Source of the DNA: a virus
Lineage: Duplodnaviria > Caudoviricetes
IMG/VR virus record: IMGVR_UViG_3300018067_000002
Span: 1 to 50,490 of that record
DNA length: 50,490 nt
Direction: 5' to 3' (one strand)
A program made the position numbers and the translations under genes. Positions 6,198-22,656 of this stretch are shown here, piece after piece; positions within the stretch are counted from its first letter, which is position 1, and the number at the start of each line of letters is the position of its first letter. The notes beneath the pieces are model-generated. The model did not search any database. It saw only the letters and a program-made list of their open reading frames with translations, and was not told the origin of the DNA.

Positions 6198-6847
6198 TGC
6201 CGAAAGATTTTGCTACTGCTTCAACGATTATCAGTTTGTTTCCTCTACCAATCTTCGAGAGGAAGCCTCTGATTCCAAGTCTCTATCAAGTTCCAGCTTC
6301 AAAGCGAGAACTCGATCCACAGATTCTTGTCGTCAAGGAAGGCATCTTCCATGTCTATCTTGACGAATTTCGCGGCATGATGACCATTCGGACGCCAGCT
6401 ATTACAGTGGCAGACTCGGTCGTCAGAGATTTCATGGACAGCCAGTATATGGCATCAGACGACGCCAGACCTGCGCTGTGGCACATTCCAGGTGAGTGGT
6501 CACCTATCGATATCGCGACCGATCGTGAGCAACAGAATCGCATACAAGCTGAGAACTCTCTGCAACTCGAGTGGTTCAAACGCTTGATCGTCATCGCCGA
6601 CGACGAGTGGCAGAAGTTCCATCAGCATCGGATGATCACAGAAGTGCAGAAGGTTGCAGCTGGTCGTCTGCGACTGGTGCGCGAATGGGCCATCGAGCAC
6701 AAGCCGGAGAACATCACGGACTGCCCCGGATGCGGCTCAGTGATCAACAAGAAGGTTGCAGTCTGCCGAGACTGTGGCTGCATCATCAACATGGATCTCT
6801 ACAAGACACTTCAGTTTACTGGAGCTGTGGAACATGCTAGCAAGTGA
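6197..6847 (+). CDS. Hypothetical protein with C-terminal zinc ribbon
   Basis: CPGCG...CRDCG near the C-terminus. Confidence 0.65.
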   Translation: MPKDFATASTIISLFPLPIFERKPLIPSLYQVPASKRELDPQILVVKEGIFHVYLDEFRGMMTIRTPAITVADSVVRDFMDSQYMASDDARPALWHIPGEWSPIDIATDREQQNRIQAENSLQLEWFKRLIVIADDEWQKFHQHRMITEVQKVAAGRLRLVREWAIEHKPENITDCPGCGSVINKKVAVCRDCGCIINMDLYKTLQFTGAVEHASK

Positions 6848-7478
6848 AGTCATGGACGAAGCGGCGGCGCTGATGAACGACTCAGGTAAGCTGACGTGGG
6901 GCTACCCACAGCTTCTCCCATATCTGCAACGTGCATACAGAACGCTAGAGTTAAACCTCTTTCTTAACGGTGTGAGGTCGTTAAAGGAGGTCTCGCTCGT
7001 TATCCCCGTGGATGCCTACGCCAAGGAGATAACACTGCCGCAGGACTTCGTTCAACCTATCGCTGTCGGAGAACGGTCTAGAAATTCGACAGATGAATAC
7101 GTAAACGTCACAGAGTCCGACTGGGATCAGGGATTCAAGTCGGACTACGTTCAGTTCTGGACGTTTCGAGAAGACCTGCTTAAGATTAATGCTCCGAATA
7201 CAGATCGAGAAGTTCTCCTGCGGTATCGCAAAGGACTGGCTTCTCTTACGAGCGAGAACTCTAACATTACTATTCTTCTGTCGAAGCCTTATCTATCAGC
7301 AAAGACAGCCGCTAATGCCTCTGCATTCGGAGCGTCCAACCCAGAACGAGCGGGCATCCTGAACGGAGAGGCAGGTGACTGTCTTTCAATGCTGATCAAT
7401 TCTGAAATACGGAACCAACAAGGGCAACGGTTCCGACGTCGAGCATACGGATCAAGCAGGCGCGCACGGCGCTTCTAG
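6834..7478 (+). CDS. Putative head-tail adaptor (tail tubular A-like)
   Basis: ~214 aa from ATG 6834; LPQDF motif and position before the nozzle-size gene. Confidence 0.55.
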   Translation: MLASEVMDEAAALMNDSGKLTWGYPQLLPYLQRAYRTLELNLFLNGVRSLKEVSLVIPVDAYAKEITLPQDFVQPIAVGERSRNSTDEYVNVTESDWDQGFKSDYVQFWTFREDLLKINAPNTDREVLLRYRKGLASLTSENSNITILLSKPYLSAKTAANASAFGASNPERAGILNGEAGDCLSMLINSEIRNQQGQRFRRRAYGSSRRARRF

Positions 7479-7944: not shown

Positions 7945-9803
7945 TGATCGAAAACCACGTTCCAATACCCATTAACGATTTCAATGGTCTGTTCGACCGT
8001 GGTCCAGACGAGGCTATACCTCTCGATCATTTCAGAACTGCTCAGAACCTCAAATACAAGCCGACAGGCTTTTACACAAGGGAAGGCTCCATACTGTCAA
8101 CAACGTGTGGAGCCGTCCTTCGTTTTCACGTATACAAGATCACAGGACAAGCGTCAAGACTGCTTATCCTTTTAACTGGCGGACAGCTCTATGATTCCGC
8201 CAATATGTTGAATCCGATTCTTAATATTCCCACGATGACAGACTTCTCGATGGAAGTCTTTTTCGATAGAGCTTACATTACGCCACACAACGGACTCACC
8301 GGACTTCCTGGTCAGTTCGTTTACTACTACACAGGCTCCGGAACGGCTGTTGTCGCAGGTGGACCCGGACCTGCTATTGCGCCACCAATGGGTATTGCTC
8401 AAGGTGGTGCTGGACATATAGATAAAGGTATCCATGCGTTTGCTGTAGCGTTTGAGACCACAACAGGTTTCGTTACACAGATGGGTGGGTTCACGGGTAT
8501 CGTAACAAGTGGCGAGAAAACTGTCGAACTCTCTGGAATTCCTCTCGGTCCTGCTGGGACCGTAGCTCGTATACTGTTCGCAACTAAGGACGTTGCAGAT
8601 CCGGTAACAGGTCTTTACGATTGGGACTATGCTAATGCAGAATGGTTCTTCGTCCCAGAGGGACGGATCGCAAATAACACCACAACAACTAAATCAGTGT
8701 CGTTCTTCGATGCTGATCTCCAGGACCAAGCAGACTATATCCTTGAACAACTACCCACGATCCCTGCCGGAGTTGGGATCACCGCGTATAAAGGAAGCAT
8801 GGTTGTCTGGGGAGAAGATGCAAACCAATCCACCGTTCGGATCTCCAAGGCAGGACAGCCTGAATCTTTTAACGCAGTCGAAGGCTTCCTCCAAGTCGAA
8901 CCATCTAATGGTGGAGGAGTAAGAAACTGTGTGGAGTTCCGCTCGGCTCTTTACATCCTGAAATCCCAACGGTGCTATGCGACAGTTGCAACCGATGAAG
9001 AAGCGGCGTTCTGGGACGCGCCACTGCTCGACGGTTCCGCTGGAACTGAGTGTCACGGGATCGGAAAGATTTTTGAGCGGAACTCCAACACGGTCGACAA
9101 GTATCTGATTGCCTCTCGTCGTGGCTTGTTGCTCTTTACGGGTAACTTTCAAGAAGAAATCTCTTGGAAGGTGAAAGACATCTGGGGTCGTATTACTCCA
9201 CAATACTTTCACAAAATCCAAGTGATGGTCGACGCAGACAATCAGTTCATCTATGTGTCGTTGCCCATAGATGGTTCAACCGTCACGAACTGTGTTCTCT
9301 TTGCAGACTATTCAGTTAACCTGGATTCTGCAAAGGTCAAGTGGGCAGTCTGGACGTTTCCACACAAGCCTGTTTCGATCGCGCTCGACGTCGACGATGT
9401 CACCAAAGAGATTATCTTTCGATTCGCGCGTGAGGATCAGAACATCTACAGAATCCAGCCGAACGTCTGGAACGATTACGGGATCGCTATCAATACGATC
9501 TGGGAGACTGCACAGACACCGTTCGACTCTAAAGGCGAAGTGTTCCATCACGGAGGCGCGCGCCTTAGAGTCTATGGACAAGGCAATTTAGCTCTCACGG
9601 TCACGACGCTAGACAACGCTGTGGTCGCGCAACTTCCTGCAATCCCGTTGTTTCAGAATCCTGGAGTCTATCCCTTCAGATCATACAACATCCAGAGTGA
9701 GAAGGTTACTCTAAAAGGAACTCTGGACGCTTTTGACGAACACTTAGTTATCACTAAACTCTGGGTGTTTGTTAGACAACTCTGGCTTACGAGACCTCAG
9801 TAA
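7944..9803 (+). CDS. Putative tail nozzle/stabilisation protein (P22 gp10 or tubular B-like)
   Basis: 619 aa, beta-rich, FNGL N-terminal motif, TAATG coupling at both ends. Confidence 0.55.
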   Translation: MIENHVPIPINDFNGLFDRGPDEAIPLDHFRTAQNLKYKPTGFYTREGSILSTTCGAVLRFHVYKITGQASRLLILLTGGQLYDSANMLNPILNIPTMTDFSMEVFFDRAYITPHNGLTGLPGQFVYYYTGSGTAVVAGGPGPAIAPPMGIAQGGAGHIDKGIHAFAVAFETTTGFVTQMGGFTGIVTSGEKTVELSGIPLGPAGTVARILFATKDVADPVTGLYDWDYANAEWFFVPEGRIANNTTTTKSVSFFDADLQDQADYILEQLPTIPAGVGITAYKGSMVVWGEDANQSTVRISKAGQPESFNAVEGFLQVEPSNGGGVRNCVEFRSALYILKSQRCYATVATDEEAAFWDAPLLDGSAGTECHGIGKIFERNSNTVDKYLIASRRGLLLFTGNFQEEISWKVKDIWGRITPQYFHKIQVMVDADNQFIYVSLPIDGSTVTNCVLFADYSVNLDSAKVKWAVWTFPHKPVSIALDVDDVTKEIIFRFAREDQNIYRIQPNVWNDYGIAINTIWETAQTPFDSKGEVFHHGGARLRVYGQGNLALTVTTLDNAVVAQLPAIPLFQNPGVYPFRSYNIQSEKVTLKGTLDAFDEHLVITKLWVFVRQLWLTRPQ

Positions 9804-11248
9804 TGGGCATCCAGAGAGACTCACGGATCGAATCCCTAGGGAACGACGAACGTTCAGTTCTCGTTCTCAAGGAGATTCTCCGTGACTATAACAAGGATGT
9901 TCTTAGGATAAACGATCTTCTTCAGATTGTAAATGACCGCATATCCCCGCCTACGGGTGGGGGTGGTGTCGGTGCATCTCCTGAGCCTCCTAATTTCGCT
10001 GGACAAGTTCTTCCTTTTTCTATCTTTTTGTCATGGGGTTCGCCAGAACCCGCTGCACACATGTTCGAGATTCGTCGTAGCCCAGTTGTAGATTGGGTTA
10101 CGGCATCGTTCGTGACGCGCACTCCGTCATTTACTGTTAACCTTGCGCCTCTGCTCGTAGGATCATATTACTTTTTACTCAAGAGTATCGATGCTCTAGG
10201 TAACTACTCAATTAGCTACACGACAGTTCAATTAACAGTTCTTGCTCCAGGAACTCCTGCTGTTACAGCAACAGTTATTGACAACAACGTTCTTCTGTAT
10301 TGGGATGTTCCACAGACAAGTCATCAAATTGATCGATATAATCTTTACAAGAACGACGTATATTTCGGAACACATCGTGGCACGTTCGTTCCGATCTTTG
10401 AGACAATCTCCGGCACTTATACATACGCAATAGAAGCTGTTGATGTTGCTGGTAACGTAGGGCCAAGAGGGTCAGTAACTACAATTGTTAACCAGCCTCC
10501 AGACTTCGAGCTTGAAGATCAACGTATTACAGACTTGTATGGGACACGAGTTAATGTAGCTCGATTACCAGATGCAACGACTCCGTCTACGCCTACAAGG
10601 AAGTCTAGTCTGTTAGCTTGTGTTGATCTGACCGCTACGTGGGAACAGCATTTTACTTCTAAGTCATGGACGACGATCGAACAACAGATCAACGCTGGCT
10701 ATCCGATCTACATCCAACCGACGCTCTCAACAGGTTCATACGAAGAAGTCTTTGATTACTTAACAGAAATTCATAATACGATTGCGACGATCAATTACCA
10801 GTTTCTTGAGCACGTTGCACAAGTCGGACTTGTTATCAAGTTGGCTTGGTCGATAGACAATGTTACGTTTACTCCGTTCATAATAGGTAACTCTCAATTC
10901 ATACCACATTTTCGATACTTAAAGATGCGCCTCGAGTTTACTTGCGACAGTGATAAGGCACTGGGCGAGTTCTCGATGATTCAGATTACTCTCGACGTCA
11001 AAAAAGAAATGGACTCGGGAGAAATTATAGCTCTTGCAACTGACTTGACTGGAACACCAGTTCTGTTCACTAAGACGTTCAAGGATATCGATTCAATCAC
11101 CTGCACGGCAGATTCGATCGAACCGATTGACGTCATCTACGATTTCACAGACGTGCCCAATCCAACAGGATTCCGCGTCTTTGCAATGGATACCACAGGC
11201 AACCGAGTGACCTATCTCGTGTCGTGGAAGGCGAGAGGTATCACGTAA
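9803..11248 (+). CDS. Tail protein with fibronectin-III-like repeats
   Basis: Two LxWxxP...Y...A(I/V)DxxGN FN3 signatures (KSIDALGNYS, EAVDVAGNVG). Confidence 0.65.
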   Translation: MGIQRDSRIESLGNDERSVLVLKEILRDYNKDVLRINDLLQIVNDRISPPTGGGGVGASPEPPNFAGQVLPFSIFLSWGSPEPAAHMFEIRRSPVVDWVTASFVTRTPSFTVNLAPLLVGSYYFLLKSIDALGNYSISYTTVQLTVLAPGTPAVTATVIDNNVLLYWDVPQTSHQIDRYNLYKNDVYFGTHRGTFVPIFETISGTYTYAIEAVDVAGNVGPRGSVTTIVNQPPDFELEDQRITDLYGTRVNVARLPDATTPSTPTRKSSLLACVDLTATWEQHFTSKSWTTIEQQINAGYPIYIQPTLSTGSYEEVFDYLTEIHNTIATINYQFLEHVAQVGLVIKLAWSIDNVTFTPFIIGNSQFIPHFRYLKMRLEFTCDSDKALGEFSMIQITLDVKKEMDSGEIIALATDLTGTPVLFTKTFKDIDSITCTADSIEPIDVIYDFTDVPNPTGFRVFAMDTTGNRVTYLVSWKARGIT

Positions 11249-11976
11249 TGTGGAAGCGTTGGCATCAGACGACTCATATATGGGAACGTAGTGTTGATAA
11301 CGGTGCGAGTTGGAGTCCTTTGCCTCTTAACGCTGCGACGATTACTGAAGGGACTCTATCAGACGCGCGTCTTTCTACAAACATCGTAAGGAAGAACGTT
11401 GCTAATGAGGAGGTTACGTCAGCGCTCACAGTTAGAGGTGGTTTAGGTATAGCTGATCTCCAACTGTTTGATGTCTCCAGAAATAGGTTGTGGAGACTCT
11501 TAAGTTATCTAGACGAGTTCAAAGCCTGGGAAGGAAACAACGATAACTTTTCAGTCAACATCAATGGCCAGACTCGGACTAGGGCAGGCTATTTTGAGTT
11601 TGGTCGAGGTCAAGCTCAGGGTCAACGAGTCACTTGGGCTACGTCAATTTTGACAGCAACAGGGGTAAATTGCGGTGGTTCCATCACGGCATTTTACTCC
11701 CTAGTGGGCTATCAACTTTGGTGGTCTATATATGGTGTAAACATGAGCGTCCCAGTAGTTACTCCATATCTTTTACTTCCAATTCCTGCTGGATACCCCT
11801 CGGTAAGTCCTTACACCGATCAACCAATTATAAGAGCCTTTGTTCCGGGTATTGGAGATGAAGCAGGTTACGCTCAAATAGATCCAAATTACATACAGAT
11901 ATACCGTCCTAAAGCAGTTAACTGGCCTACAGGAATTGGGCACGTTATTGGTCAAGGCTTCTATTGGATAGGATGA
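11248..11976 (+). CDS. Putative tail fibre/receptor-binding protein
   Basis: ITEGTLSDARLS fibre motif; C-terminal LPIPAGYP...GFYWI beta-sandwich tip. Confidence 0.55.
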   Translation: MWKRWHQTTHIWERSVDNGASWSPLPLNAATITEGTLSDARLSTNIVRKNVANEEVTSALTVRGGLGIADLQLFDVSRNRLWRLLSYLDEFKAWEGNNDNFSVNINGQTRTRAGYFEFGRGQAQGQRVTWATSILTATGVNCGGSITAFYSLVGYQLWWSIYGVNMSVPVVTPYLLLPIPAGYPSVSPYTDQPIIRAFVPGIGDEAGYAQIDPNYIQIYRPKAVNWPTGIGHVIGQGFYWIG

Positions 11977-12323
11977 ACATGGCTAACACAGCATACACAC
12001 AACAAGCGTTAGCGTCGAATGCAAATTTCCAAACGCGCGTGAGGAATGCGATTTCGACGGTCGCGTGGCAGGTTCTCAATGAGCCAGCTAACACTCCGAA
12101 CAACAAGGCACGAGTGAACTACGCTCGATCCGTGATTGCCAATCTTCAGATGGCAGCGGTGACGATCTCGCCTTGGCTCGTGGATAGGCCAAATCTCTTT
12201 GGTTTTGAAACGACTTATGATTTTCCATCTGGTAATGTCGTAACAGCCTCAGGTGATGCAGACATTGAATCACAAATTGCAACCGATTGGGACGTATTAG
12301 CAGGTAACTTGGAGCCAGTATGA
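11973..12323 (+). CDS. Hypothetical tail-associated protein
   Basis: ATGA-coupled ORF in the tail module. Confidence 0.55.
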   Translation: MNMANTAYTQQALASNANFQTRVRNAISTVAWQVLNEPANTPNNKARVNYARSVIANLQMAAVTISPWLVDRPNLFGFETTYDFPSGNVVTASGDADIESQIATDWDVLAGNLEPV

Positions 12324-12511
12324 ATCAACCTTCTCAACTTGATCTTTCTCTTGAAGAAATCTACATAATCGTTGGTGAACTCGAAGTCGTCCGACGCAAA
12401 CTCAACATGCAAGTTCAGGGTTATCTGAAACAAATCGACGAGATGAGTGCAGAGATTACCAGATTGCGAGAGGAAAATGGCCGACTGGCTCAAACCGACA
12501 ATAACGAGTAA
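12320..12511 (+). CDS. Small coiled-coil protein
   Basis: Heptad pattern; ATGA-coupled. Confidence 0.55.
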   Translation: MNQPSQLDLSLEEIYIIVGELEVVRRKLNMQVQGYLKQIDEMSAEITRLREENGRLAQTDNNE

Positions 12512-13148
12512 CTACATCACGTTTGTCGACGAGGTCAAAGCTCGTGATGTTGACGCCATTACTCTGCAAGCTGTAGCCCTTGTTAATCCTCCAATATACG
12601 CCGTCAAATTGGTGCGAATGTCACCGTATCCAAATATCAGGTTTCAGGAGTGGAATGGGACAGCGTTTAACGAGTTGACTCTCTCTATACAAGGTGGAGG
12701 CACAGGCGCGAATTCTCTTGCTGGTCTTGCGTCTAATATGGGTCTGGGAACGATGGCGTATCAGAACTCCAATAACATCAGCGTTACTGGAGGATACCTA
12801 AATGGTGTGAGAATCGACAACCCTACCGTTTACGGGACATTTAATCAAAACTCTGGAGCTTACAATCTTCAGGGTAATATGAGCATTTATAACGTCACTA
12901 ACACTGGTGTCTCGTTCAATGTCTTGACAAATATTCCCAACAACTTTGCTGCTGTAATCCAACATGCTGGTATTCCCAGCCTTGGAGTGGTAATTCGTGC
13001 AGGGACGAGCAAGACAGATCAGTGTTTGAATTTAGAAAATGGAGCCGCAACGATCAACTGGTTGTTGGTTCGTGGCGATGGTGCGATGATATACAACTCC
13101 GCAAATCTAGCCATTCCGGTCGGAACAAATAGATTCGTCCCAGTATAG
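12477..13148 (+). CDS. Putative tail fibre protein
   Basis: RBS gaggaaa then ATG 12477; LSIQGGGTGANS...LGTMAYQN is a typical fibre shaft motif. Confidence 0.6.
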   Translation: MADWLKPTITSNYITFVDEVKARDVDAITLQAVALVNPPIYAVKLVRMSPYPNIRFQEWNGTAFNELTLSIQGGGTGANSLAGLASNMGLGTMAYQNSNNISVTGGYLNGVRIDNPTVYGTFNQNSGAYNLQGNMSIYNVTNTGVSFNVLTNIPNNFAAVIQHAGIPSLGVVIRAGTSKTDQCLNLENGAATINWLLVRGDGAMIYNSANLAIPVGTNRFVPV

Positions 13149-13150
13149 TC

Positions 13151-13978
13151 ATGGCTAAGCTACGTGGCTCTATTTGGATTAACGACAACCAGTTCTGCTA
13201 CATCGATGAATATGATCGAGAGTGGCGCTGGATAGGTCAACCAGTCGGTCCAACTGGTCCTTTAGTTCCAGGATCATTTTGGATGGAGTTAGACGATATC
13301 CGCTACGTGAATCAGGCTGGTAATTATGTCTATCAAATTATTGGACCAGTAATTCAGAATCATCCTACTGCACTTCGTGGTTCAATTTGGATCTCTCAAG
13401 GCTTCTTTCGATGGATTGATCGTTCTAGTAATGAGCGAGTAGCACATCAGGATGTGACCCATACCGATGGTGCTGGTGGACATTTAGACGTTCCTCACAC
13501 TGATACTGGACATGGTGACACTCATACCGATGGAACTCATGGAGACGTCCACACTGACGTTCCTCATAGTGACTTTCATGGTGATGGACATACTGATGTT
13601 CCTCATAGTGATCGTCCTCATACTGATACACACAGCGATGGGTCAATTCATAATGACCAACCAAACTATCACTTTGATTTTAATGACACAATACATAATG
13701 ATGGGGCTGGACATAGTGATATAAATGCACACGGTGACGGTGGAATTCAACACAATGATCACTATGATACTCATAACGATATAATTCATCTTGACGCACC
13801 TACAGTTATTGACCACAACGATCAAGCACATCAAGATTCTCCCGCTCAGGTCGGTCATATAGATTCCTCTCATGGGGATACGCATTCAGATGCTCCACCT
13901 ATAAGCGTCCCGCACCAGGATCACACAGATGCCTCATCAGGCGCGCATCAAGACAATCCTCAGTATATTGGACCATGA
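13151..13978 (+). CDS. His-x-Asp repeat protein (candidate radical SAM substrate / virion appendage)
   Basis: Three N-terminal (R/P)GS(I/F)W repeats, then 31 HxD motifs from residue 99 onward. Confidence 0.85.
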   Translation: MAKLRGSIWINDNQFCYIDEYDREWRWIGQPVGPTGPLVPGSFWMELDDIRYVNQAGNYVYQIIGPVIQNHPTALRGSIWISQGFFRWIDRSSNERVAHQDVTHTDGAGGHLDVPHTDTGHGDTHTDGTHGDVHTDVPHSDFHGDGHTDVPHSDRPHTDTHSDGSIHNDQPNYHFDFNDTIHNDGAGHSDINAHGDGGIQHNDHYDTHNDIIHLDAPTVIDHNDQAHQDSPAQVGHIDSSHGDTHSDAPPISVPHQDHTDASSGAHQDNPQYIGP

Positions 13979-15234
13979 CTATAGAATATTTGCCTGTCGG
14001 CATCGCGTGCAATCTCGGTTGCACTTACTGTTACCAAGATCCTATGAGGGATGCTGGCAATATCAATGTGCCTCGTAATTGGGAACGTGTTAAGGAGCAG
14101 TTGCTTGCCTATGGGAGCAGCTTCTCTGTTTTTGGAGGCGAGCCGTTACTTGCATCTATTGAGCACCTAGAAGAGGTTTGGAAATTTGGATACGAACGTT
14201 TTGGTCAGAATGGAATACAGACAAATGGATCTCTTATTACTGATGCGCATATTGAGCTTTTCAAAAAGTATCAGGTCGGTGTTGGTATATCTATTGATGG
14301 CCCTGGAGTTCTCAACAGTGCTCGTAGCTGCGGTATTGATACTCCAGCTGCTACTGACAGAACCCTGTTCGCTATTAGAAGACTGTGCGACGCTGGGATA
14401 CCTCCTTCCTTAATTATCACTATCCATCCGATCAATGCTGGTGGTGACAGACTGTTAGAGCTACTAGCATGGCTCGATAGCATGGAGAAGATCGGAATCC
14501 AATATATCAACTTTCATATCCTCGAGGTCGAGAAAGGCAAAGAGGATATGATGTTTACTGTGGAAGAAAATACAGACGTCTTTACTCGCCTCTATCTGTG
14601 GTCGAAGGCATCGAAGATGCGAGTTGAGCCGTTCTGTGACATCCGGTCTTTACTGACGGAGATACATCCACATGTCTCTTGTGTTTGGAACCATTGTGAT
14701 CCTGCTACGACGGCCGCTGTCCAGGGTATCGGCCCTGATGGGACGCGCAGCAACTGTGGTAGGACTAACAAGGACGGTGTTAATTGGGTTAAAGGGGATA
14801 CACCGGGTTTCGAGCGCTATCTCCTCTTGCGCCAGACGCCCCAAGAAGTTGGAGGTTGTAAAGGTTGCTCCTTCTTCATTTTTTGTAAAGGACAGTGTCC
14901 TGGAACTGCTATCGACGGAGACTGGCGAAACAGAACAAGAGACTGCAAGACGTGGTATGCACTCTTTGAACGAATTGAAATAGACGTCGTTCGAGACGGT
15001 CTTGTTCCAATTTCGTTAAATTGTTCTCTTAAGTCTGAAATAGAAGACGACCTTGTAAGACAGTGGTCAGGCGAAAACGCTCATCATGCAGACGTTCCGC
15101 ATGGTGACGTTCCTCATGGAGACGATCACGGAGACTCTCCTCACGGAGATGGACACTACGATACGAATCCAAAGCCGAGACAAGGTATTCCAGGAGTATG
15201 GCTAGATGAACCGCCTAAACTTTTCTCTTCCTGA
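13975..15234 (+). CDS. Radical SAM/SPASM-domain maturase-like enzyme with HxD tail
   Basis: CNLGCTYC (CxxxCxxC), GGEP, QTNG, ISIDGP; SPASM cysteines SCVWNHC...PDGTRSNC...CKGCSFFIFCKGQC...DC; six HxD motifs at the C-terminus. Confidence 0.92.
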   Translation: MTIEYLPVGIACNLGCTYCYQDPMRDAGNINVPRNWERVKEQLLAYGSSFSVFGGEPLLASIEHLEEVWKFGYERFGQNGIQTNGSLITDAHIELFKKYQVGVGISIDGPGVLNSARSCGIDTPAATDRTLFAIRRLCDAGIPPSLIITIHPINAGGDRLLELLAWLDSMEKIGIQYINFHILEVEKGKEDMMFTVEENTDVFTRLYLWSKASKMRVEPFCDIRSLLTEIHPHVSCVWNHCDPATTAAVQGIGPDGTRSNCGRTNKDGVNWVKGDTPGFERYLLLRQTPQEVGGCKGCSFFIFCKGQCPGTAIDGDWRNRTRDCKTWYALFERIEIDVVRDGLVPISLNCSLKSEIEDDLVRQWSGENAHHADVPHGDVPHGDDHGDSPHGDGHYDTNPKPRQGIPGVWLDEPPKLFSS

Positions 15235-16561
15235 GTTCACTCGTATTATTTGGTCTTCTACAAAAGCACGAGCTACTTGGAAGCCAAGGATCGACGCAAT
15301 CAATAATGTCTGGCCTGAGATAGAGCGCGCCACAGTTTCTACGCAGATGCGACCTGGAGGCTTACAGTCGATTGCTCCTGAGAACTTACTGACGTTCCAA
15401 GCGAATTGCTTCAACGCGCACATGCAATACGCTATCGTCGGTCGAGAGGGCACGAGCCCAGTTTACGGTAACGCTTCACAGCCTGTCCAAGACGACAAGC
15501 CGTGGCACTACCGAGTCTACTTTGGCACAGATCCAAAGACGTTTCTACAAGAGTGGGCAGAGGGAAACCAGCTACGGATCGGAGACTTCCTCGGGTATCC
15601 TCGTTGCTGTTCGGAGTTCTTTCAGTCATGTTGGGTTAATGATGGCTGGAGAGATCTGACGTATCCGATGATGAGAAACAGCCAGAACAATGGACCATAC
15701 ACCTGTAATATCTTACTTAGACATATTGGTGTTCGTCCTGTGTTTCATCTCCCTTGCAGCTTTAATTGCGATTCTACTGGACATATTGGAGAGGAAATAA
15801 TCGAGTGCGCGTGCCAGATGGGTTTCGACATCGAAATGAGTTGGCTGAAGAACATTCTCAGTTGGCCTATTCGATGGTCGTCCATGCATGGAGTTGCTAT
15901 AATAACTACGCCGGTTGTAAAGATCATCACGTCTTCCGATGCACTAGAGGGCCGTGTAGACTTGGACAGACCGGGTAACAGCTACCCGGAGGAAGGAGCT
16001 TCAGGAAACGAGTTCCCTTTCTCCCAGGTTCCCATGTCACTATTAGAAGGAATTCGGGATACGTGGACTGACAACGGCTTCGGGTCCTTTTCAGCTATGC
16101 GAAAGGCGCACGGCTTGGTGCTGAGGACGATTTCGACGATCTACTTGGATAGTGGTAGGATTATCGATCTCGGTTGTGGCAACGGTATCCTACTTGAACG
16201 TATACATAAAGAGCATCCGCATCTGATTCCTTACGGAGTCGAATACGAGTCAGGAGCATATTCGAGAGCAAGAGAACGTATCGGAGAAGAGATTTGGTTT
16301 TACGACCTCTACGATACGGACAAATACTTGCAAGAGAACTTTCAGATTGCTATCATTTCTTTGAACCGTTTCAAGGAGATCGATGAAGAGAAGTCTGAGA
16401 TATTTCTCAAGCATCTTCGTAATCATGTCAATTTCTTAGTGGTATACTCCTATGAAGACTGGAAGCCAGATTTGGACAATCTTCTTTCTCACCACTTTCA
16501 TATGGTGGGTGTTGAAACAAATGAGGATTCTGAAGTAAGAATATTCAGACCGAGAAGCTAG
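15206..16561 (+). CDS. Cys-rich DUF483-like domain fused to a class I SAM-dependent methyltransferase
   Basis: LGYPRCCSEFF and HLPCSFNC in the N-terminal half; IIDLGCGNG motif I and YGVE motif II in the C-terminal half. Confidence 0.7.
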   Translation: MNRLNFSLPEFTRIIWSSTKARATWKPRIDAINNVWPEIERATVSTQMRPGGLQSIAPENLLTFQANCFNAHMQYAIVGREGTSPVYGNASQPVQDDKPWHYRVYFGTDPKTFLQEWAEGNQLRIGDFLGYPRCCSEFFQSCWVNDGWRDLTYPMMRNSQNNGPYTCNILLRHIGVRPVFHLPCSFNCDSTGHIGEEIIECACQMGFDIEMSWLKNILSWPIRWSSMHGVAIITTPVVKIITSSDALEGRVDLDRPGNSYPEEGASGNEFPFSQVPMSLLEGIRDTWTDNGFGSFSAMRKAHGLVLRTISTIYLDSGRIIDLGCGNGILLERIHKEHPHLIPYGVEYESGAYSRARERIGEEIWFYDLYDTDKYLQENFQIAIISLNRFKEIDEEKSEIFLKHLRNHVNFLVVYSYEDWKPDLDNLLSHHFHMVGVETNEDSEVRIFRPRS

Positions 16562-16572
16562 CCGTTCACCCG

Positions 16573-16959
16573 ATGAACACCTTGCGCGCCTATCAGCCGT
16601 CAGATCTTGCTGCTATCAGTAAGATTTGGGAAGACCATCACTCGTCCTTTTACGGTTTGCCAGATCGTAGGGCTGCTGTTATTGACGCCGTCGTCGAAAA
16701 CGATGGCAAGATCATAGGCTACGGACAGGTCAGACTGTTTGCTGAAGCTATGCTCTTTCTTGATATGGACGCGCCTCTGCGGTCAAGGATACAGGCGTTA
16801 CAACAGTTGATGCGTGAGGCTTTTCGTGGGACAGAACGTGCTGGTCTACGAGAGATTTACGCATTTATTCAAGACCCTGACTTCTCCTTATTAATGCAAA
16901 AGCATTTCCATTTTGTGGCAGCCGACAAACCCGGTGAGCTGCTCGTAAAGGAGCTATGA
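16573..16959 (+). CDS. GNAT-fold acetyltransferase-like protein
   Basis: LRAYQPSDLAAI...VVENDGKIIGYG; sits before the ejection proteins, as in P22/T7-like phages. Confidence 0.55.
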   Translation: MNTLRAYQPSDLAAISKIWEDHHSSFYGLPDRRAAVIDAVVENDGKIIGYGQVRLFAEAMLFLDMDAPLRSRIQALQQLMREAFRGTERAGLREIYAFIQDPDFSLLMQKHFHFVAADKPGELLVKEL

Positions 16960-18281
16960 TGGGTGGAAGCAAAACGAATAAGCAGAATCAGGCAAATCAG
17001 ACCCAGAACAACGCCTATCAGACCCAGTTCGAGAACGAGCAGCAGCAACGGTCGAAAGAGGCGTATGACCGCTCTAACACAGCGTGGGGCGGAGCCAACG
17101 ATACGTATCAAAACTTCGCAAAAGGCGGAGGCAAAGAGTTGCTCGACGGCATGGGTAACTACCAAGCCGGTGGCGACGGCGGAGCGGCTGGCGATCCGCG
17201 CTTCGGTGAAGTCGAAGGTTCGTATCGGAACTTCATGAACACTGGTGGCGTGGATACAGGCAGGTTCAATCAGTTCCAAGGGAACCTCCTCGACATTGGA
17301 GCCACAGGTGGATGGGATCAGGCTGCGCGTGACAACGTCAACAGATCGATAGCTGGCTACCAGAATTTCGCGGACACTGGAGGAGTCAGTGCCGAAGATC
17401 AAAACCGAATGCGCGGCATGGGTATTTACGACGAGTGGTCAAAAACCGGCGGCGTATCAGATGCTGATAAAGCTAATATCCGTGCTCGAGGCAACTCGGT
17501 TATCCCCGCATTCTACAATCGAGTACGAGAAGAAAGCAACAGGCTCGGTCGTGTGCAGGGTGGTGGAGGACCTGGACAAGCAGCACTGATGTCCCGACTC
17601 GCCCGCGATCAATCGAGAGGCGCACAGAGCGCTGCGCTCCAGACTGAGGGCGGACTAGCTGATACGATCCGTTTAGGCCAGAAGTGGGGCACTGAGGGGA
17701 TGGAACGGTCTGAGGCTGGGCTGCAAGAATTGCTCTCCAAGAATAAGCTCGCTGGCATGGGCGGCGTAGCAGACGCTACAGGTTTGATGGCAAACTCGAT
17801 TGCTCAGAATCGGACTGCTGCGTCAGCTGCTGGAGGTGGCAATGAAATCGGAATGCAAGGACTCATTTCCGGAAACAAACTCCAGGGAACTCGGGGACTT
17901 GAGGGAATGGCTGAGTCATCAGCTGCACGAGGGGCAGCTTCTAGTAACGCTGCTGCTGCAGACGCGAGATGGAGAGCTTCATTCCTTGCAGATAATATGC
18001 TTGCCGGAGCAGGTGGGCTCCGTGGTCTCAGAACTGATGTCCCCGGAGAAGTTGCTCTCTACGATCAGAACCGCCTCAACAGCCGACAGATTTGGAACCA
18101 AGGGAATCAGATAAATCAGCAACCCCAAGGCGGAGGAACTGATTGGGGCCAAGTCGCTGGAGCCGGAGCTAACGCGGCTGCAACATACTTCGGTGGTCAG
18201 ACAGGCAACACCGGAGTCAACGGTAGACCGAGAAACCCCTACGGCTACGACCAAGCCGAAGGCTATTACGGACCTGGTTAA
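16956..18281 (+). CDS. Putative DNA ejection/internal virion protein
   Basis: MGGSK start; Gly/Gln/Ala/Asn-rich. Confidence 0.55.
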   Translation: MMGGSKTNKQNQANQTQNNAYQTQFENEQQQRSKEAYDRSNTAWGGANDTYQNFAKGGGKELLDGMGNYQAGGDGGAAGDPRFGEVEGSYRNFMNTGGVDTGRFNQFQGNLLDIGATGGWDQAARDNVNRSIAGYQNFADTGGVSAEDQNRMRGMGIYDEWSKTGGVSDADKANIRARGNSVIPAFYNRVREESNRLGRVQGGGGPGQAALMSRLARDQSRGAQSAALQTEGGLADTIRLGQKWGTEGMERSEAGLQELLSKNKLAGMGGVADATGLMANSIAQNRTAASAAGGGNEIGMQGLISGNKLQGTRGLEGMAESSAARGAASSNAAAADARWRASFLADNMLAGAGGLRGLRTDVPGEVALYDQNRLNSRQIWNQGNQINQQPQGGGTDWGQVAGAGANAAATYFGGQTGNTGVNGRPRNPYGYDQAEGYYGPG

Positions 18282-18284
18282 GTC

Positions 18285-18731
18285 ATGGGATTCTGGAAAA
18301 AGTTCGCCAAAATCGCCATACCTATCGGAGCAGGAGCAGCGACACTTTTCACCGGAGGTGCGGCTGCTCCACTCCTAGGCATGGCTCTCGGTGCGGGTTC
18401 CGGAGCGGCAATGGGCGCTCTAAACGGTCAGGGCTGGAAAGGCTCCCTGATCAACGCTGGTATCGGAGGTGCGCTCGGTGGAATCGGCGGTGGCGCACTC
18501 AAAGGCATGGGCGGACTTGGCAAGAATCTGACAAGTGCAGCCAAGTATGCTCCGTCTGCTGTCAAAGCTGCACAAGGACTTGCCGGTGGACCTGCACAAC
18601 AGCAAGTCGCAGGCATGGCAGGTCCGTCACCAGTCCAAGTTGGTGGCGCACAGGGCTATCTCAATCCACTCGGTTTACAGGCACAGCGACGAACAGATTT
18701 AGCAGGAATGGGGACGAGACAATATGCCTAA
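18285..18731 (+). CDS. Putative ejection (pilot) protein with Gly-zipper segments
   Basis: MGFWKKFAK followed by GxxxG-rich hydrophobic stretches. Confidence 0.55.
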   Translation: MGFWKKFAKIAIPIGAGAATLFTGGAAAPLLGMALGAGSGAAMGALNGQGWKGSLINAGIGGALGGIGGGALKGMGGLGKNLTSAAKYAPSAVKAAQGLAGGPAQQQVAGMAGPSPVQVGGAQGYLNPLGLQAQRRTDLAGMGTRQYA

Positions 18732-19830
18732 TGCTTTTGACATGCGTCGTTACGCAGGCATGTTCGGTGGTGGTCCTCAACAGGACCCGCTGATGTCTGC
18801 CTATCGAAAGATCAACTTCAACGCTCCACGGCAACAAGAGCCTGTCGCTCCTGAGCCACCTGCTGCACAGGAAGATCCTTTCATGTCTGCAATCAATCGG
18901 TTGCAGAGTGGGCAAGCAGCAGGTGCTTATCGGAAGCATCTGACAGACATGCCTGATCCAAAGGCTTATGCACCGAGTAAGTGGCGTCGCCTTGGAGCGG
19001 CTCTGACTGCTGGAGCAGCGTCATTCGGAAAGACTCCACAGAACGCTATGGAGCTAGGTTCTGAGGTCAGAGATGCTCCGCTCAAGAGCGCGCTTAACGA
19101 ATGGCAGCTCAAAGGCGCGGGCCTGAAGGAACAGGCTGACATCGAGTCACAAGATGTCAAGGGCCAGATGGAGCAAATCAAGGCCATTCGTGAATACATG
19201 AAACAGCAGAACGACACCGAGATCGCAAAGGCTACTGCGGAATCGCAGATCCGTCTACGTGACGCTCAGATCGCCAACTTTGAATCTCAAGGTTGGACGC
19301 AAAGCGTGCGCCCCGATGGAAATCTCTGGATGGTCAAGCCCGGTCAGGAGCCTCAGAACATGGGGCCATCGATGGAAGGTCGCAAACAGGACTGGACAGA
19401 GAAGTATCAGGGCGGTCAACAGCAAGTTGCTGAGGGCAAACTCAAGGATGATCAGCGACGAACTGGCATCATGGGTCAGAACGCCAACACATATGCTGCG
19501 ACGGCTGGCAGGCAAGGTGGCGTCGTAGACGCGCAAGAGAACTTCCAAGCTGAAGCGTTCGCGACACAGCAAGTTCTCCGTGAGAAGCCAGAATATAAAG
19601 GCTGGGTTAATCCAAACGGAACGATCAAGGGACCAAACGACTACTGGTTTGGCGGTAGTATGCCCAATCCAGCAAACGACAAGGGATACGCTGACTTCCT
19701 CGCAAGGGTAGAATCTGCGAAACAGCGTGTTCTCGGAACACGTCGACCAGGCGCGCCCGGTGCCGTCATGACACCTGGTGGAGCAGTAACACCACAGGGA
19801 CCGATTCCCTTTAACTCGCTTCCTGACTAA
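18724..19830 (+). CDS. Putative internal virion protein
   Basis: Gln/Ala-rich helical 368-aa ORF in the ejection cluster. Confidence 0.5.
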   Translation: MPNAFDMRRYAGMFGGGPQQDPLMSAYRKINFNAPRQQEPVAPEPPAAQEDPFMSAINRLQSGQAAGAYRKHLTDMPDPKAYAPSKWRRLGAALTAGAASFGKTPQNAMELGSEVRDAPLKSALNEWQLKGAGLKEQADIESQDVKGQMEQIKAIREYMKQQNDTEIAKATAESQIRLRDAQIANFESQGWTQSVRPDGNLWMVKPGQEPQNMGPSMEGRKQDWTEKYQGGQQQVAEGKLKDDQRRTGIMGQNANTYAATAGRQGGVVDAQENFQAEAFATQQVLREKPEYKGWVNPNGTIKGPNDYWFGGSMPNPANDKGYADFLARVESAKQRVLGTRRPGAPGAVMTPGGAVTPQGPIPFNSLPD

Positions 19831-19832
19831 CC

Positions 19833-22502
19833 ATGTATCCTCCACGACGCACAGAAACAACTCCCCGTCGCACGATACAGATTGACATGGACGGAGAGAT
19901 CCTCGACATGGATTGGGATAAACCCACTCCTCCTACAAAAACAGATGTCCAGCAATGGATAAAGATGAAGAGGGATTATGTTAGACCTCCTGATCCGACG
20001 CCTACGCCTACACGTCAAGAACCTGCACCAACGTCGCTCTACGACAAGATCTCGTCGTTTGGTAGCGGGCTTGTCGACCCTCTCAGGGGAATGGCGCAGT
20101 CAGTTCTGGAGACAGGGAGGGAAGGCGCCAAAGACGTAATGGCAGGAAACTACCCGGCTGCGTTCGGTCGGGTAACTGCTCCTATCATGGATGCTTTCAC
20201 CAAGACAGGTGGGATGGTCCTTGGTAGGATGTCAGGTCAACAACCGACACCAGAGGAAGCTATCACACAAGGCGCGGAGATGGCTGGTATCCCTGCGCCA
20301 CAGATCAAAGAGGCATATGCCCAAGCAGACTATCCACGACTCGCGGGACAAGCCCTCGGAACACTCGGAACAATCTACGGAGCACACAAACTCGGAAAAG
20401 CTACCGATTTTACCAACACCTTCAAAGGAGCCGCCGAAGGGATGGGTTCCGATTTTTCTCCTGGTGCTCCTCCTGTTCCTAGTCCTGTCCGTCCTCCTGT
20501 GGGTCCTGTTCTTCCGAACATAAAGGAGCCACAACAGCAAGCGTTGCCTCTTGATACGCCTCCAGCACCCACGATGAGGTCACAGGTGATGCCAGAGGCT
20601 GAGCCTCAGCAGATGACGCTTGGTCTTGACTTAGCGAAGCAAGGACCTCCTGAGATCGCTAAGGCAGCTGCACAGACTGAACAAGCTGTGCGCCTGAAGG
20701 AATCGAAATGGAAGCGTGTCGGTCAAGACATAGGGACAGCTGTGTCGACGATCATAGAAAAGTCTGGTAAAACTGGACCTGCTCTATCCCGTATGTTGAC
20801 GAAGACACGTCTTGATGCTGATGCGATGGCAGGCAAGTGGACTGTTGCTGCGAAAGAAGCGACGGCAGGTCTGTCTGCAGACCAGATACAGGACTACGTC
20901 ATCGCGCGCGACACTGGAGTCATTCCGAACGACCCAGCTGTCATCCGTGCGCTTGAGCTACGCAAGGTGCTAGACGACGAAGTCGTCGGAACAATGAAAG
21001 GCTCAGGCGCAGGCTTCAGAACAGGAGAAGGCAAGACTGAGTTCCAGGAGAGAACAAACTACTGGCCTCACATCTATCCTCCAGAGTTCTTCAAGAATGC
21101 ACAGTCTGCTATGGACGCTCTTATAGCAGATGGCATGACTGCGGAGGAGGCGCAAGTTGCTCTCAAGAATGCGTCACGATTCGGAGAACGTATCATTAGC
21201 CCTCTACATGAGAGGCAGTCGAATGCTCCGGGTTACAGAACAGACCTGCAAGCAGACTACCTGCATCTCAACGACATGGCAAAACGTGCCACAGAAGCCA
21301 AAGACTTTGGACCGATGGATATCGCAGACCCGAGCAGTCCGATCTCCCAGCTAGTGTCGGGCACGCACGATCCAGCACGTATCAGTGAGCTAGTCTCTCA
21401 GCATTTGGGACGAGACGTTCCAGCAGCTACGACGAGAGATTGGGGTGGTGTATCACGAGGCATCATGAAGGCTGAGACTATTATGCATCTTTCTCAATTT
21501 GCGATTTCCAACATGAGTCAGTTGGCGACAGTTCCGCTCCGGAGTAACATCGGTGCCTACGCGAAAGCTCTCAAGAGCACAATCGGAAACTTTAAGAAAA
21601 CTGTCGGCGAGGCTGAGGGAACTGGAGCGCTTCAGACGATTCATCAAGACATCCTCAGGGAAGTCGGTGGTGAGTCGAATGTATCGAAAGTTTTTGGGAT
21701 GAAGAAGTCGGAGACGTTCAACAGAACTGTCGCAGCTGCGGCTGGAAAGGGCACGGCAGAAGCGCTCTTCAAACAACTCAAAAAGAATCCCAACGATGCA
21801 AAAGCGCGCGCACGTTTGGACAATCTATTGCTCGAAGACGTCAATGCTGTACTACAGCAAGAAGCTCTGACACCAGAGCAAACAGCTAGAGCCGGTGGTC
21901 GAATGGCTGAGATTACACAAGGGCGCGCTCAGTCTGTGGACTTGCCACCCATGTGGTCGAAGCATCCTGCTATGGATCTCATTATGTTGTATAAAAAGTA
22001 TGCGTTCCGACAGTCGAAGATCATCAAGGACGCTATCATGGAGAATCCTACGAGGAACATTCCTCTAGCGATTGCTCTCTACACCGCGATGGGAGAAGTC
22101 GTTGGTGACGCAAAGGCAGGGATCAAAGGTCTTGTTTCTGGACAGGGTCCTGGAGAAGCTATCGGAGCGCGCGGTGAGAATCTCAATAGAGTGGTAGCCA
22201 ATCTCGGTCAAGCATGGGCGCTTGGTCTTGTAGCTGACGCCATAGGTGCAGCGACAAGTGGCGAGGAGATGTCAGCGTTGCAGTTCCTAGGTGGACCTGT
22301 GATCGGTGACATTACTGAGACACTTGCTGGGGCTGGACAAGCTGTGCGTGGCAATCCGAATCCTTTGCTCAAAAAAGGAGCCAAGTCAGTTCCCATTATA
22401 GGATCTGGCTTGGCTCAGCGATTCGGTCAGAAGACAAATAAACGACGGGCGATGCCTACGTTACCGGCTCCTCCGAGGTTGCCGACAATTCCACGTCCTT
22501 GA
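19833..22502 (+). CDS. Large internal virion/ejection protein
   Basis: 889 aa, helical, last gene of the structural arm. Confidence 0.55.
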   Translation: MYPPRRTETTPRRTIQIDMDGEILDMDWDKPTPPTKTDVQQWIKMKRDYVRPPDPTPTPTRQEPAPTSLYDKISSFGSGLVDPLRGMAQSVLETGREGAKDVMAGNYPAAFGRVTAPIMDAFTKTGGMVLGRMSGQQPTPEEAITQGAEMAGIPAPQIKEAYAQADYPRLAGQALGTLGTIYGAHKLGKATDFTNTFKGAAEGMGSDFSPGAPPVPSPVRPPVGPVLPNIKEPQQQALPLDTPPAPTMRSQVMPEAEPQQMTLGLDLAKQGPPEIAKAAAQTEQAVRLKESKWKRVGQDIGTAVSTIIEKSGKTGPALSRMLTKTRLDADAMAGKWTVAAKEATAGLSADQIQDYVIARDTGVIPNDPAVIRALELRKVLDDEVVGTMKGSGAGFRTGEGKTEFQERTNYWPHIYPPEFFKNAQSAMDALIADGMTAEEAQVALKNASRFGERIISPLHERQSNAPGYRTDLQADYLHLNDMAKRATEAKDFGPMDIADPSSPISQLVSGTHDPARISELVSQHLGRDVPAATTRDWGGVSRGIMKAETIMHLSQFAISNMSQLATVPLRSNIGAYAKALKSTIGNFKKTVGEAEGTGALQTIHQDILREVGGESNVSKVFGMKKSETFNRTVAAAAGKGTAEALFKQLKKNPNDAKARARLDNLLLEDVNAVLQQEALTPEQTARAGGRMAEITQGRAQSVDLPPMWSKHPAMDLIMLYKKYAFRQSKIIKDAIMENPTRNIPLAIALYTAMGEVVGDAKAGIKGLVSGQGPGEAIGARGENLNRVVANLGQAWALGLVADAIGAATSGEEMSALQFLGGPVIGDITETLAGAGQAVRGNPNPLLKKGAKSVPIIGSGLAQRFGQKTNKRRAMPTLPAPPRLPTIPRP

Positions 22503-22656
22503 TCGCGTCCTCGAACCACAGTTGCGCAGTCTCGACGTGCGTGATCGCTATCGAAAGACCACGCCCGTCGACCTCACCATTCGTGTTGCGCGTCTTGTGC
22601 AGCAGGGTGATGAGGGTTTCAAATCTTACGCTGATGCTGTTTATGTCTTCGTTCAT
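22456..22656 (-). CDS. Small helical-hairpin protein resembling Acb2/Tad1 sponge domains
   Basis: ATG 22656 overlaps the helicase stop (ATGA); GRGLSIAITHVETAQLW resembles the R-x-x-S-x-A-x-T-x-x-E-x-A-x-x-W signature. Confidence 0.5.
   Translation of the reverse strand: MNEDINSISVRFETLITLLHKTRNTNGEVDGRGLSIAITHVETAQLWFEDAIKDVELSATSEEPVT

Follow-up and report, generated by a model that had tools for sequence, protein, structure and literature searches.

A candidate protein-maturation cassette in the tail module of a viral genome: an HxD-repeat protein, a radical SAM/SPASM enzyme and a DUF483-like/methyltransferase fusion

Genes and proteins of the cassette

The window analyzed here, the whole 50,490-bp stretch of the IMG/VR record IMGVR_UViG_3300018067_000002 (Duplodnaviria; Caudoviricetes), was found to be a complete viral genome with direct terminal repeats, and the analysis was focused on three consecutive genes in it. 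Gene 1 encodes a protein with many His-x-Asp (H-x-D) units, gene 2 encodes a radical S-adenosylmethionine (SAM) enzyme (rSAM) with a SPASM domain, and gene 3 encodes a DUF483-like domain fused to a methyltransferase (Table 1). The original prediction, made from the sequence of the window, had described them as tightly coupled, and the open reading frames agreed with it, as genes 1 and 2 share a 4-nucleotide (nt) ATGA overlap (13975-13978) and genes 2 and 3 share a 29-nt overlap (15206-15234). It is strongly supported that the three genes form a protein-maturation cassette resembling those of peptides made by ribosomes and modified post-translationally (RiPPs), the neighboring H-x-D protein being the probable substrate, because the trio co-occurs, a motif rule holds and the rSAM is of the SPASM maturase type. 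This part of the original prediction was thus upheld, while the cross-links, the methylation and the virion location that it also proposed are here only inferred.

The 31 H-x-D motifs that had been reported for gene 1 were recounted, and they were found to use 31 of the 32 His residues and to lie entirely within residues 99-268. When the protein was shuffled (n = 5000), the mean number of H-x-D motifs was 4.5 (standard deviation 1.9) and the maximum was 13. A chance or low-complexity artefact was ruled out by these shuffles together with the comparison of loci given below. The codons of the motifs were mixed (His: CAT 21 and CAC 10; Asp: GAT 22 and GAC 9), and only two DNA tandem arrays, both short (39 nt x1.9 and 15 nt x2.6), were located inside the gene. 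A recent DNA tandem repeat was therefore rejected as the origin of the motifs, and the H-x-D pattern appears to be maintained at the protein level. The protein is acidic, with 39 Asp and 32 His against 10 Lys+Arg, its sequence holds no signal peptide or membrane segment, and it matched no NCBIfam model.

In the AlphaFold2 model, the N-terminal domain of gene 1 was predicted to be all-beta with 11 strands (predicted local distance difference test (pLDDT) > 90), the repeat region was predicted to be disordered (pLDDT ~45), and a strand at residues 271-274 was predicted to pack on the N-terminal domain (pLDDT ~90). Nothing below E 0.08 was found when the model was compared with the PDB using Foldseek; the weak rows listed proteins built of beta-hairpin repeats (those of the choline-binding, CROP and glucan-binding types, and BamB). 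With VIA-align, the best solved-structure match was a lectin-like bacteriocin at Z 4.5, which is too weak to name the fold, and mannose lectins were obtained at Z 2.5-3.2. That the modeled domain is a lectin-like, three-fold prism which the C-terminal strand completes is only a lead. One match was obtained in BFVD (1.5e-11), a 342-amino acid (aa) viral protein with the same length as the HxD protein of the Thermus phage phiMa. A profile search with the N-terminal domain returned 579 cluster representatives at E <= 1e-3. Among the matches listed, 86 of the 125 relatives of at least 150 aa carried dense repeats, and the others use the hairpins in other architectures. The C-terminal motif was conserved where the N-terminal domain was present, with a similar motif in 36 of 89 dense-repeat relatives. 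The hairpin repeat, in the form WIEGxxLHYIDxxGxER, also recurs in proteins without aromatic-x-Asp repeats (P0072, P0056, P0059, P0097 and others); it occupies 15 stretches of the 2001-aa protein P0072, and this repeat module is undescribed.

For gene 2, the complete CxxxCxxC and SPASM cysteine sets that had been proposed were confirmed in position. The SPASM spacing is C241-x14-G-x4-C261, C295-x2-C298-x5-C304-x3-C308 and C324, which gives the full set of seven under the SPASM seven-cysteine spacing rule. The CxxxCxxC cysteines were invariant in 31 orthologues and the SPASM cysteines were invariant or nearly so, with CxxCx5Cx3C in 119 of the 120 closest relatives. The protein matched Radical_SAM of Pfam (PF04055, E 2e-13) and has no N-terminal extension resembling a RiPP recognition element (RRE). 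The best NCBIfam matches were the cyclophane-forming AmcB (6.8e-23), the dynobactin maturase DynA (6.9e-22) and the anaerobic sulfatase maturase (7.4e-21). Every score lay far below the curated cut-off, namely 81.2/425 bits for AmcB, 55.6/445 for YhhB, 48.4/310 for GrrM/OscB, 37/370 for FxsB and 32.9/450 for XyeB, and 74.6 bits for the sulfatase maturase model TIGR03942 with a cut-off of 349.45. When a profile of the 31 orthologues was compared with the PDB, the sulfatase maturase 4k36 was matched over the full length (4.2e-25), followed by the rSAM domain of the triceptide synthase ChlB (1.2e-16). Cyclophane-forming maturases and the sulfatase maturase both attack a beta-carbon, and DynA also makes a His nitrogen-to-carbon link. 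Judged by its sequence, gene 2 is a SPASM maturase of the peptide- or protein-modifying kind that belongs to no described family.

Gene 2 itself carries a tail with six H-x-D motifs, which the original prediction had missed. At least three Hx[DN] motifs were present in the last 70 residues of 103 of the 120 closest rSAM relatives (47-92% identity). Such a tail was also found in distant orthologues such as those of the Thermus phages Cumys and phiLo and of loci L030, L032 and L035, and it was missing in several genome loci and in the L012-L022 group. The tail may serve the enzyme as a pseudo-substrate or as a handle that it modifies itself, or it may let the enzyme dock onto the repeats.

The cysteine-rich domain and the SAM-binding motif that had been noted in gene 3 were likewise substantiated. 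C134, C135, C184 and C188 were invariant in 24 relatives, and a GCGNG motif in the C-terminal half was conserved in the alignment of relatives. The predicted model was confident (mean pLDDT 88; N-terminal domain ~90), and a methyltransferase fold was indicated for residues 280-451 in the C-terminal half by Foldseek to NodS (3.1e-9) and by VIA-align (Z 17.3, root-mean-square deviation 3.1, 161 residues aligned), while its Pfam matches were below the cut-off (23.2 vs 27). For the N-terminal domain, Pfam DUF483 (PF04467) was reached at 15.4 bits (E 0.019), with a gathering cut-off of 25 bits. The cut-off was passed by the homologues in L025 (30.1), L017 (26.8) and L030 (25.4), to which gene 3 was related at blastp E 1e-26 to 1e-70, and DUF483 was present in 16-43% of the members of the nearest Atlas clusters, which are mostly viral. 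By sequence the domain is DUF483-like, a label that rests on the relatives. A profile of the domain found nothing below E 0.6 among PDB sequences, and in an Atlas search that excluded DUF483 the sole match, DUF6302, lay below the useful range at 0.78. In whole-model structure searches of gene 3, the rows were filled by the methyltransferase half.

Table 1. Positions of the cassette genes, their predicted domains and motifs, and neighboring genes in the window
Feature	Position	Strand	Description
Gene 1 (substrate candidate)	13151-13978	+	275 aa; HxD-repeat protein
Gene 1, N-terminal domain	13151-13444	+	Residues 1-98; three beta-hairpin repeats GSxWIEGxxLxYIDxxGxxR
Gene 1, repeat region	13445-13954	+	Residues 99-268; 31 H-x-D, 3-10 residues apart
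Gene 1, C-terminal motif	13955-13975	+	NPQYIGP; family consensus [DN]xPx[YF][IV]G
Gene 2	13975-15234	+	419 aa; radical SAM/SPASM enzyme
Gene 2, radical SAM cluster motif	14008-14031	+	CxxxCxxC; C12/C16/C19
Gene 2, SPASM cysteines	14695-14946	+	C241, C261, C295, C298, C304, C308, C324
Gene 2, own H-x-D tail	15085-15162	+	Residues 371-396; six motifs; 15-nt tandem array 15085-15124
Gene 3	15206-16561	+	451 aa; DUF483-like + class I methyltransferase fusion
Gene 3, DUF483-like domain	15206-16021	+	Residues 1-272; GYPxCC ... HLPCSxxC at 15605-15769
Gene 3, predicted methyltransferase domain	16073-16561	+	Residues 290-451; class I, SAM-dependent
Tail-fibre-like gene, upstream	12447-13148	+	233 aa; PHROG tail fibre family phrog_25747, weak, E 8.6e-5
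Tail/host-specificity gene	9803-11248	+	PHROG match 6e-17
SU10-type adaptor	6756-7478	+	In the plus-strand block
Small conserved gene	16573-16959	+	128 aa; no assigned family; 3' of the cassette in the closest relatives

Conservation of the trio and of the repeat motif

Loci for comparison were collected by protein searches and pattern scans, which yielded 31 IMG/VR loci and 33 genome loci. The 45 orthologue loci comprised the window, three Thermus phages, the 31 IMG/VR loci and the 10 genome loci with full-length orthologues, and the 23 genome loci that matched only the generic N-terminal rSAM core were used as controls. A locus was scored as positive when a frame other than the rSAM held at least 9 [HWYF]x[DN] units in 60 residues. 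As near-duplicates were present (for example L001/L002, L009/L010, L015/L016/L018 and L017/L019), the independent lineages are fewer than these counts.

A dense-repeat neighbor frame was found in 33 of the 45 orthologue loci and in none of the 23 controls, where the maximum was 6 units. Seven of the 12 misses fell at a contig end where the gene was expected (L012, L014, L023, L028, L031, L034 and L044). The cut tail of a dense-repeat protein was visible in L021, 8 HxD units stood beside masked sequence in L037, and large proteins ending in a few H-x-D/Y-x-D units were encoded directly before the rSAM in L040 and L041. A DUF483-like partner was present in 41 of the 45 orthologue loci (40 by blastp, and L045 by profile comparison; 99%, 4.8e-18) and in 0 of the 23 controls. 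Of the 40 loci with a blastp-found partner, 24 encoded the methyltransferase as a fusion with DUF483; the Thermus phages were without it.

The trio was kept together across rSAM identities of 32-68%. The gene order was substrate-rSAM-DUF483 in most loci, substrate-DUF483/methyltransferase-gap-rSAM in L013-L022, and rSAM-DUF483-substrate in L036 and L038. In a Leptospirales metagenome-assembled genome (MAG; L041:3658-5661), the rSAM and the DUF483-like protein are fused into a single protein of 667 aa, which is preceded by an 870-aa protein ending in HxD/YxD units. The DNA of 13151-16561 had no match among GenBank phages. At the protein level, the Thermus phages Cumys, phiMa and phiLo, with rSAMs 49-50% identical to gene 2, were the only carriers found among 50,697 GenBank phage records, and 2523 cluster representatives of the rSAM family were obtained from metagenomes at E <= 1e-20. 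Cumys and phiMa can be grown on a harmless laboratory strain. The cassette is rare among cultured phages and common in metagenomes.

The repeat region was also found joined to N-terminal parts unlike that of gene 1. The motifs stand at the C-terminal end of proteins of 741-1034 aa in L033, L039 and L040 and of the 870-aa protein in L041, different N-termini precede the repeats in phiLo and L030, and exported proteins carry them in cellular loci. As the repeats occur on such varied N-terminal parts, the enzyme likely recognizes its substrate through the repeats themselves. In L017 (1545-2897) and L019, the 450-aa substrate contains a longer repeating unit (HCDMPIHND...), with 61-62 HxD motifs and 14 cysteines in total, which points to a further level of structure or modification.

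The motif rule was derived from 26 substrate proteins. The residue two positions after His was D in 757, N in 76 and E in 3 of 889 cases, and the residue two positions before Asp was H in 757, Y in 116, W in 40 and F in 21 of 1134 cases. In 89 further dense-repeat relatives, obtained by an exhaustive profile search with the N-terminal domain of gene 1, the dominant unit was HxD in 72, HxN in 6, YxD in 4, FxD in 3, WxD in 2, and YxN and FxN in 1 each. Moreover, whole proteins switch class, with H-x-N (16) in L026, W-x-D (18) together with H-x-D (21) in L030, and F-x-N/D in L022. The last case is a close comparison, as L022 has 39 F-x-[DN] and 6 H-x-D whereas L013 repeats mainly H-x-D, with rSAMs 70% identical and N-terminal domains 70% identical. 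The rule is accordingly any aromatic ring, any residue, and then Asp or Asn, not Glu. The H-x-N substrate of L026 belongs to a jumbo-size 156-kb viral contig in which two rSAM and two DUF483 paralogues were found (L026:1320-6864).

This rule bears on a different view, in which the HxD protein serves as a metal-binding or low-complexity spacer that stays unmodified, and the rSAM, the DUF483-like protein and the methyltransferase act elsewhere. His and Asp are classic metal ligands, and the repeat region is predicted to be disordered. However, Glu is excluded and Asn is accepted, and the Phe units of L022 would bind no metal; read from the sequences, the exclusion of Glu and the acceptance of Asn and of any aromatic fit side-chain geometry better than charge or metal binding. 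The tight linkage to the rSAM with translational overlap, and the motif on the enzyme itself in most close relatives, also argue against an unmodified spacer, which is considered quite improbable. The rule is instead what would be expected for a bond between the ring of residue 1 and the beta-carbon of residue 3, the bond by which triceptides are defined. Of the new evidence on the type of chemistry, this rule is the most important piece.

Proposed chemistry and comparison with known systems

In the proposed mechanism, the cassette would be expressed along with the tail genes. Gene 1, which is very probably the substrate of the rSAM, would supply a folded beta-hairpin domain and a disordered stretch of ~170 residues with 31 aromatic-x-Asp units. 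By 5'-deoxyadenosyl radical chemistry, gene 2 would remove a hydrogen from the position-3 Asp (or Asn) at its beta-carbon, which would then bond to the aromatic ring of position 1, that of the His (or Phe/Tyr/Trp) two residues upstream. This triceptide-type reaction would take place tens of times on a single protein. The DUF483-like domain would be an obligatory partner of the rSAM; since the rSAM lacks a recognition domain, the partner is proposed to bring in the substrate or to serve as a scaffold. The fused methyltransferase would provide an optional tailoring step; we infer both the methylation and its target. The product would most likely be a segment of a tail fibre or whisker that is stiffened by staples, withstands proteases and heat, and possibly chelates metal. 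For the aromatic-to-C-beta cross-link as such, the case is about evenly balanced, and the explanation taken as a whole is given an equal chance of being right or wrong.

Close chemical precedents are found in the maturases of triceptides, or three-residue cyclophanes (such as HaaB, YhhB, HtkB, XyeB, GrrM/OscB, FxsB and AmcB), which share with the cassette a radical SAM and SPASM enzyme, an adjacent substrate gene and an aromatic-X-X3 motif that is often repeated. According to the accessible part of PMC11499958, the His motifs HAA, HNR and HTK carry His-C2-to-C-beta bonds, and HtkB takes Phe or Trp instead of His, so that His at position 1 is interchangeable with Phe/Trp there as in the repeat proteins. 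The differences are considerable. Triceptides are made from a short leader-core peptide, whereas the phage substrate has 275 aa with a folded domain (relatives up to 1034 aa) and 31 motifs, with up to 72 H-x-D in phiLo, and its position 3 is nearly always Asp/Asn. The partner is a DUF483-like protein and not an RRE/PqqD domain, the tail of the phage enzyme carries the motif, and the cassette contains no protease or exporter and lies in a tail module. The similarity is also distant, with 81 vs 425 bits.

The anaerobic sulfatase maturase (anSME), also a SPASM enzyme, is the best full-length relative of gene 2 with a solved structure, and it modifies a whole folded protein by beta-carbon attack. 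Its substrate motif and outcome (formylglycine) are unrelated to those proposed here, and the Asp beta-carbon carries no heteroatom to oxidize.

As the rSAM falls in no curated family, the serious rival to an aromatic-to-C-beta link is a different radical chemistry with the same cassette and substrate, for example a ring-nitrogen-to-carbon link, a one-carbon bridge comparable to the +8 Da change in the bacterial protein HxsA, epimerization, oxidation of the beta-carbon or its methylation by the fused methyltransferase, at the aromatic-x-Asp units. DynA, the second-best match, makes a His nitrogen-to-carbon link as well, and in more than half of the loci where blastp found the partner, it is fused to a methyltransferase. 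In addition, the SHRSS motif of the bacterial repeat protein HxsA gains +8 Da and shows no 2-Da loss, as stated in the available part of the source, so that other radical outcomes exist on similar motifs. However, the strict three-residue spacing with any aromatic and with D/N only is the signature of an aromatic-to-C-beta cyclophane, and epimerization or oxidation alone would need no aromatic partner. A different chemistry is therefore regarded as unlikely, although it has to be taken seriously.

HxsA belongs to the bacterial His-x-Ser system (HXS) cited in the original prediction, whose role in anti-phage defence was demonstrated in 2026; in the accessible text, the rSAM-matured His-x-Ser repeat protein HxsA blocks phage DNA entry, and its basic repeats were proposed to be the means. 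The HXS components (HxsA, HxsB, HxsC and HxsD) share with the phage cassette, as far as that text describes them, a full-length repeat protein of His-x-small-residue type, rSAM maturation and a small accessory protein, and both systems are tied to phage-host conflict. Unlike the phage genome, which has one rSAM, HXS has two (HxsB and HxsC). Its repeats are based on Ser, number five and are basic, whereas the phage protein has Asp, tens of repeats and an acidic composition, lacks a signal peptide and a peptidoglycan-binding domain, and is phage-encoded among tail genes. In the genome, the HxsA model TIGR03979 gave no match at E <= 1, the HxsC model gave no match, and the HxsB model reached 22.4 bits with a cut-off of 370. 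Membership of the phage genes in the HXS system was ruled out by these searches and the single rSAM.

The original prediction had also stated that no described phage system of this kind was known to it. This holds only in part, as the 'rSAM module' of the Thermus phages Cumys and phiMa, with similar loci in prophages, had been reported (Viruses 2024, PMC11437467). It is the same three-gene set, with an rSAM 49-50% identical to gene 2, an HxD protein with 54 motifs and a DUF483 protein, and differs from the window in having no methyltransferase fusion. In the accessible text, DUF483 fusions to methyltransferase or rSAM domains are noted, two module proteins are labeled 'unknown function', the words 'histidine' and 'RiPP' do not occur, and an unknown DNA modification is suggested. 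Full-text literature searches returned no publication in which an HxD-repeat protein of a phage is described as modified, a search on AmcB returned nothing of relevance, and the module was mentioned only in PMC11437467. That the module modifies phage DNA is favored by cyanobacterial homologues located beside deazapurine DNA-modification genes, as given in the same accessible text. The present genome is complete, though, and holds a single rSAM and no TGT/DpdA or QueC match; that rSAM is a SPASM enzyme nearest to peptide/protein maturases; and DNA modification would leave the conserved repeat protein and the position in the tail module unexplained. It is considered the least probable of the readings.

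Tail context and possible role in the virion

The plus-strand block of ~600-22,500 includes a portal-like gene (628-3135), a major-head-like gene (4430-5713) and the adaptor, and the replication genes form a minus-strand block. As these head genes and the tail genes lie upstream on the plus strand, the cassette sits within the late structural region, 3' of the tail/host-specificity match and the weak tail-fibre match. The tail context named in the original prediction was thus partly confirmed with PHROGs, whereas its 'GNAT' assignment for the gene at 16573-16959 was not supported, as no Pfam family was matched at E <= 1. Homologues of this small gene were present in L005-L011 and L029. Homologues of the tail-fibre-like gene lie directly 5' of the HxD gene in L005-L011. 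None of the scanned window genes beside the cassette matched a protease or exporter family in Pfam or PHROGs, and a promoter/terminator scan of 9000-23000 gave signal counts no higher than in shuffles.

Farther 3', the region 16956-22502 encodes Gly/Gln-rich proteins, one with a weak Gly-zipper match, followed by an 889-aa protein. For these genes 3' of 16573-16959, which the original prediction had labeled as ejection genes, no family was matched in Pfam and PHROGs at the thresholds applied (E <= 0.001 for two of them). The proteins of 16956-22502 are possibly internal to the virion. Two further fusions were observed on the minus strand. A single 811-aa protein (23860-26295) combines DNA polymerase A, a 3'-5' exonuclease and an N-terminal domain of the uracil-DNA-glycosylase superfamily, and a 424-aa protein (27157-28431) combines a ParB N-terminal domain with an N6/N4 DNA methyltransferase.

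The trio was also found in the tail modules of other viruses. In the Thermus myophages Cumys and phiMa, the cassette lies 3' of baseplate and tail-collar genes. In a Halorubellus provirus (L045:2308-8294), Baseplate_J is followed by two small genes, an HxD/HxN protein, the rSAM and a divergent DUF483-like protein. The same trio thus occupies the tail-fibre position in Thermus myophages and in a haloarchaeal provirus, and it also occurs in cellular loci. In the protein P0156, the whole gene 1 architecture with 29 HxD is fused to a region that resembles a PHROG 'virion structural protein' (2.2e-20), and in L041 a YadA-head/Peptidase_G2 fibre-like protein adjoins the cassette, 3' of the rSAM-DUF483 fusion. 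From this tail-module context, it seems somewhat probable that the gene 1 protein is part of the virion.

A possible trace of exchange with the upstream gene was also noted. The 233-aa tail-fibre-like protein ends in IPVGTNRFVPV (13123-13148) 3 bases before gene 1, and in 10 of 150 relatives (P0018, P0024, P0061, P0064 and others) the hairpin domain follows an N-terminal extension whose last residues are PVGx[DN][KR][FY]. The 233-aa protein had no blastp match among the 150 N-terminal domain relatives, so the link rests on a short motif. Gene fission or fusion between the two genes is, on these sequences, a lead only.

A more elaborate form of the cross-linking proposal is possible, although it is less probable than its simpler form. 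Part of the tail fibre would be a ribosomally made poly-cyclophane that serves as an adsorption rod, in which dozens of His-to-Asp C-C staples, set by a phage-encoded triceptide-type enzyme with a new DUF483 accessory subunit, make the disordered acidic stretch rigid, metal-chelating and protease-/heat-proof. The C-terminal strand docked on the lectin-like three-repeat domain would close the loop, the HxD tail of the enzyme would act as a primer or pseudo-substrate, and the chemistry would be common to bacterial and archaeal viruses and to secreted cell proteins.

The matured protein may also act outside the virion, as a superinfection barrier like HXS or as a secreted metal-binding protein. 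HXS rSAMs mature a His-x-Ser protein that blocks phage DNA entry, phiMa-like phages are temperate according to the available text of PMC11437467, and the trio occurs in cellular loci. In one of these, from a Gemmatimonadota MAG (L038:3013-10714), the HxD protein lies 3' of the rSAM and the DUF483/methyltransferase gene and bears a Tat-like signal by sequence reading. Neighboring genes encode a B12-binding rSAM, an outer-membrane efflux protein and a protein with a PqqD domain. On the other side, gene 1 has neither a signal peptide nor a membrane segment and is acidic where HxsA repeats are basic, its type lies within the late structural block of three unrelated virus types, fusions to structural proteins exist and HXS models do not match. 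A non-virion effector is therefore judged improbable.

Several points weigh against a cross-linked virion protein. Among the triceptides in the accessible part of PMC11499958, His at position 1 with Asp at position 3 is not listed, and HxsA, although processed, departs from the -2 Da of a cross-link. The rSAM scores far below every curated cut-off, so that the reaction type rests on distant similarity. With regard to the trio, the well-flanked orthologue locus L043 is without any repeat protein, and the partner in the haloarchaeal L045 lacks three of the four conserved DUF483 cysteines. The cellular loci L036 and L038 hold no phage genes, and together with the export-like signal in L038 they imply that a virion role cannot be general. 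Finally, the term 'mass spectrometry' does not occur in the accessible text of the Cumys paper (PMC11437467).

Small peptide natural products are the known setting of radical SAM cross-linking, and on whole proteins very few cases are known (sulfatase maturation and HxsA). If the cassette acts as proposed, RiPP chemistry would be extended to protein-sized, repetitive substrates, and DUF483, which is uncharacterized and largely viral by Atlas clusters, would gain its first functional context. The enzyme would be naturally processive and motif-programmable, and could serve cross-linking in protein engineering. For the viruses, tens of staples on a tail-associated protein would represent a new way to harden or functionalize their particles.

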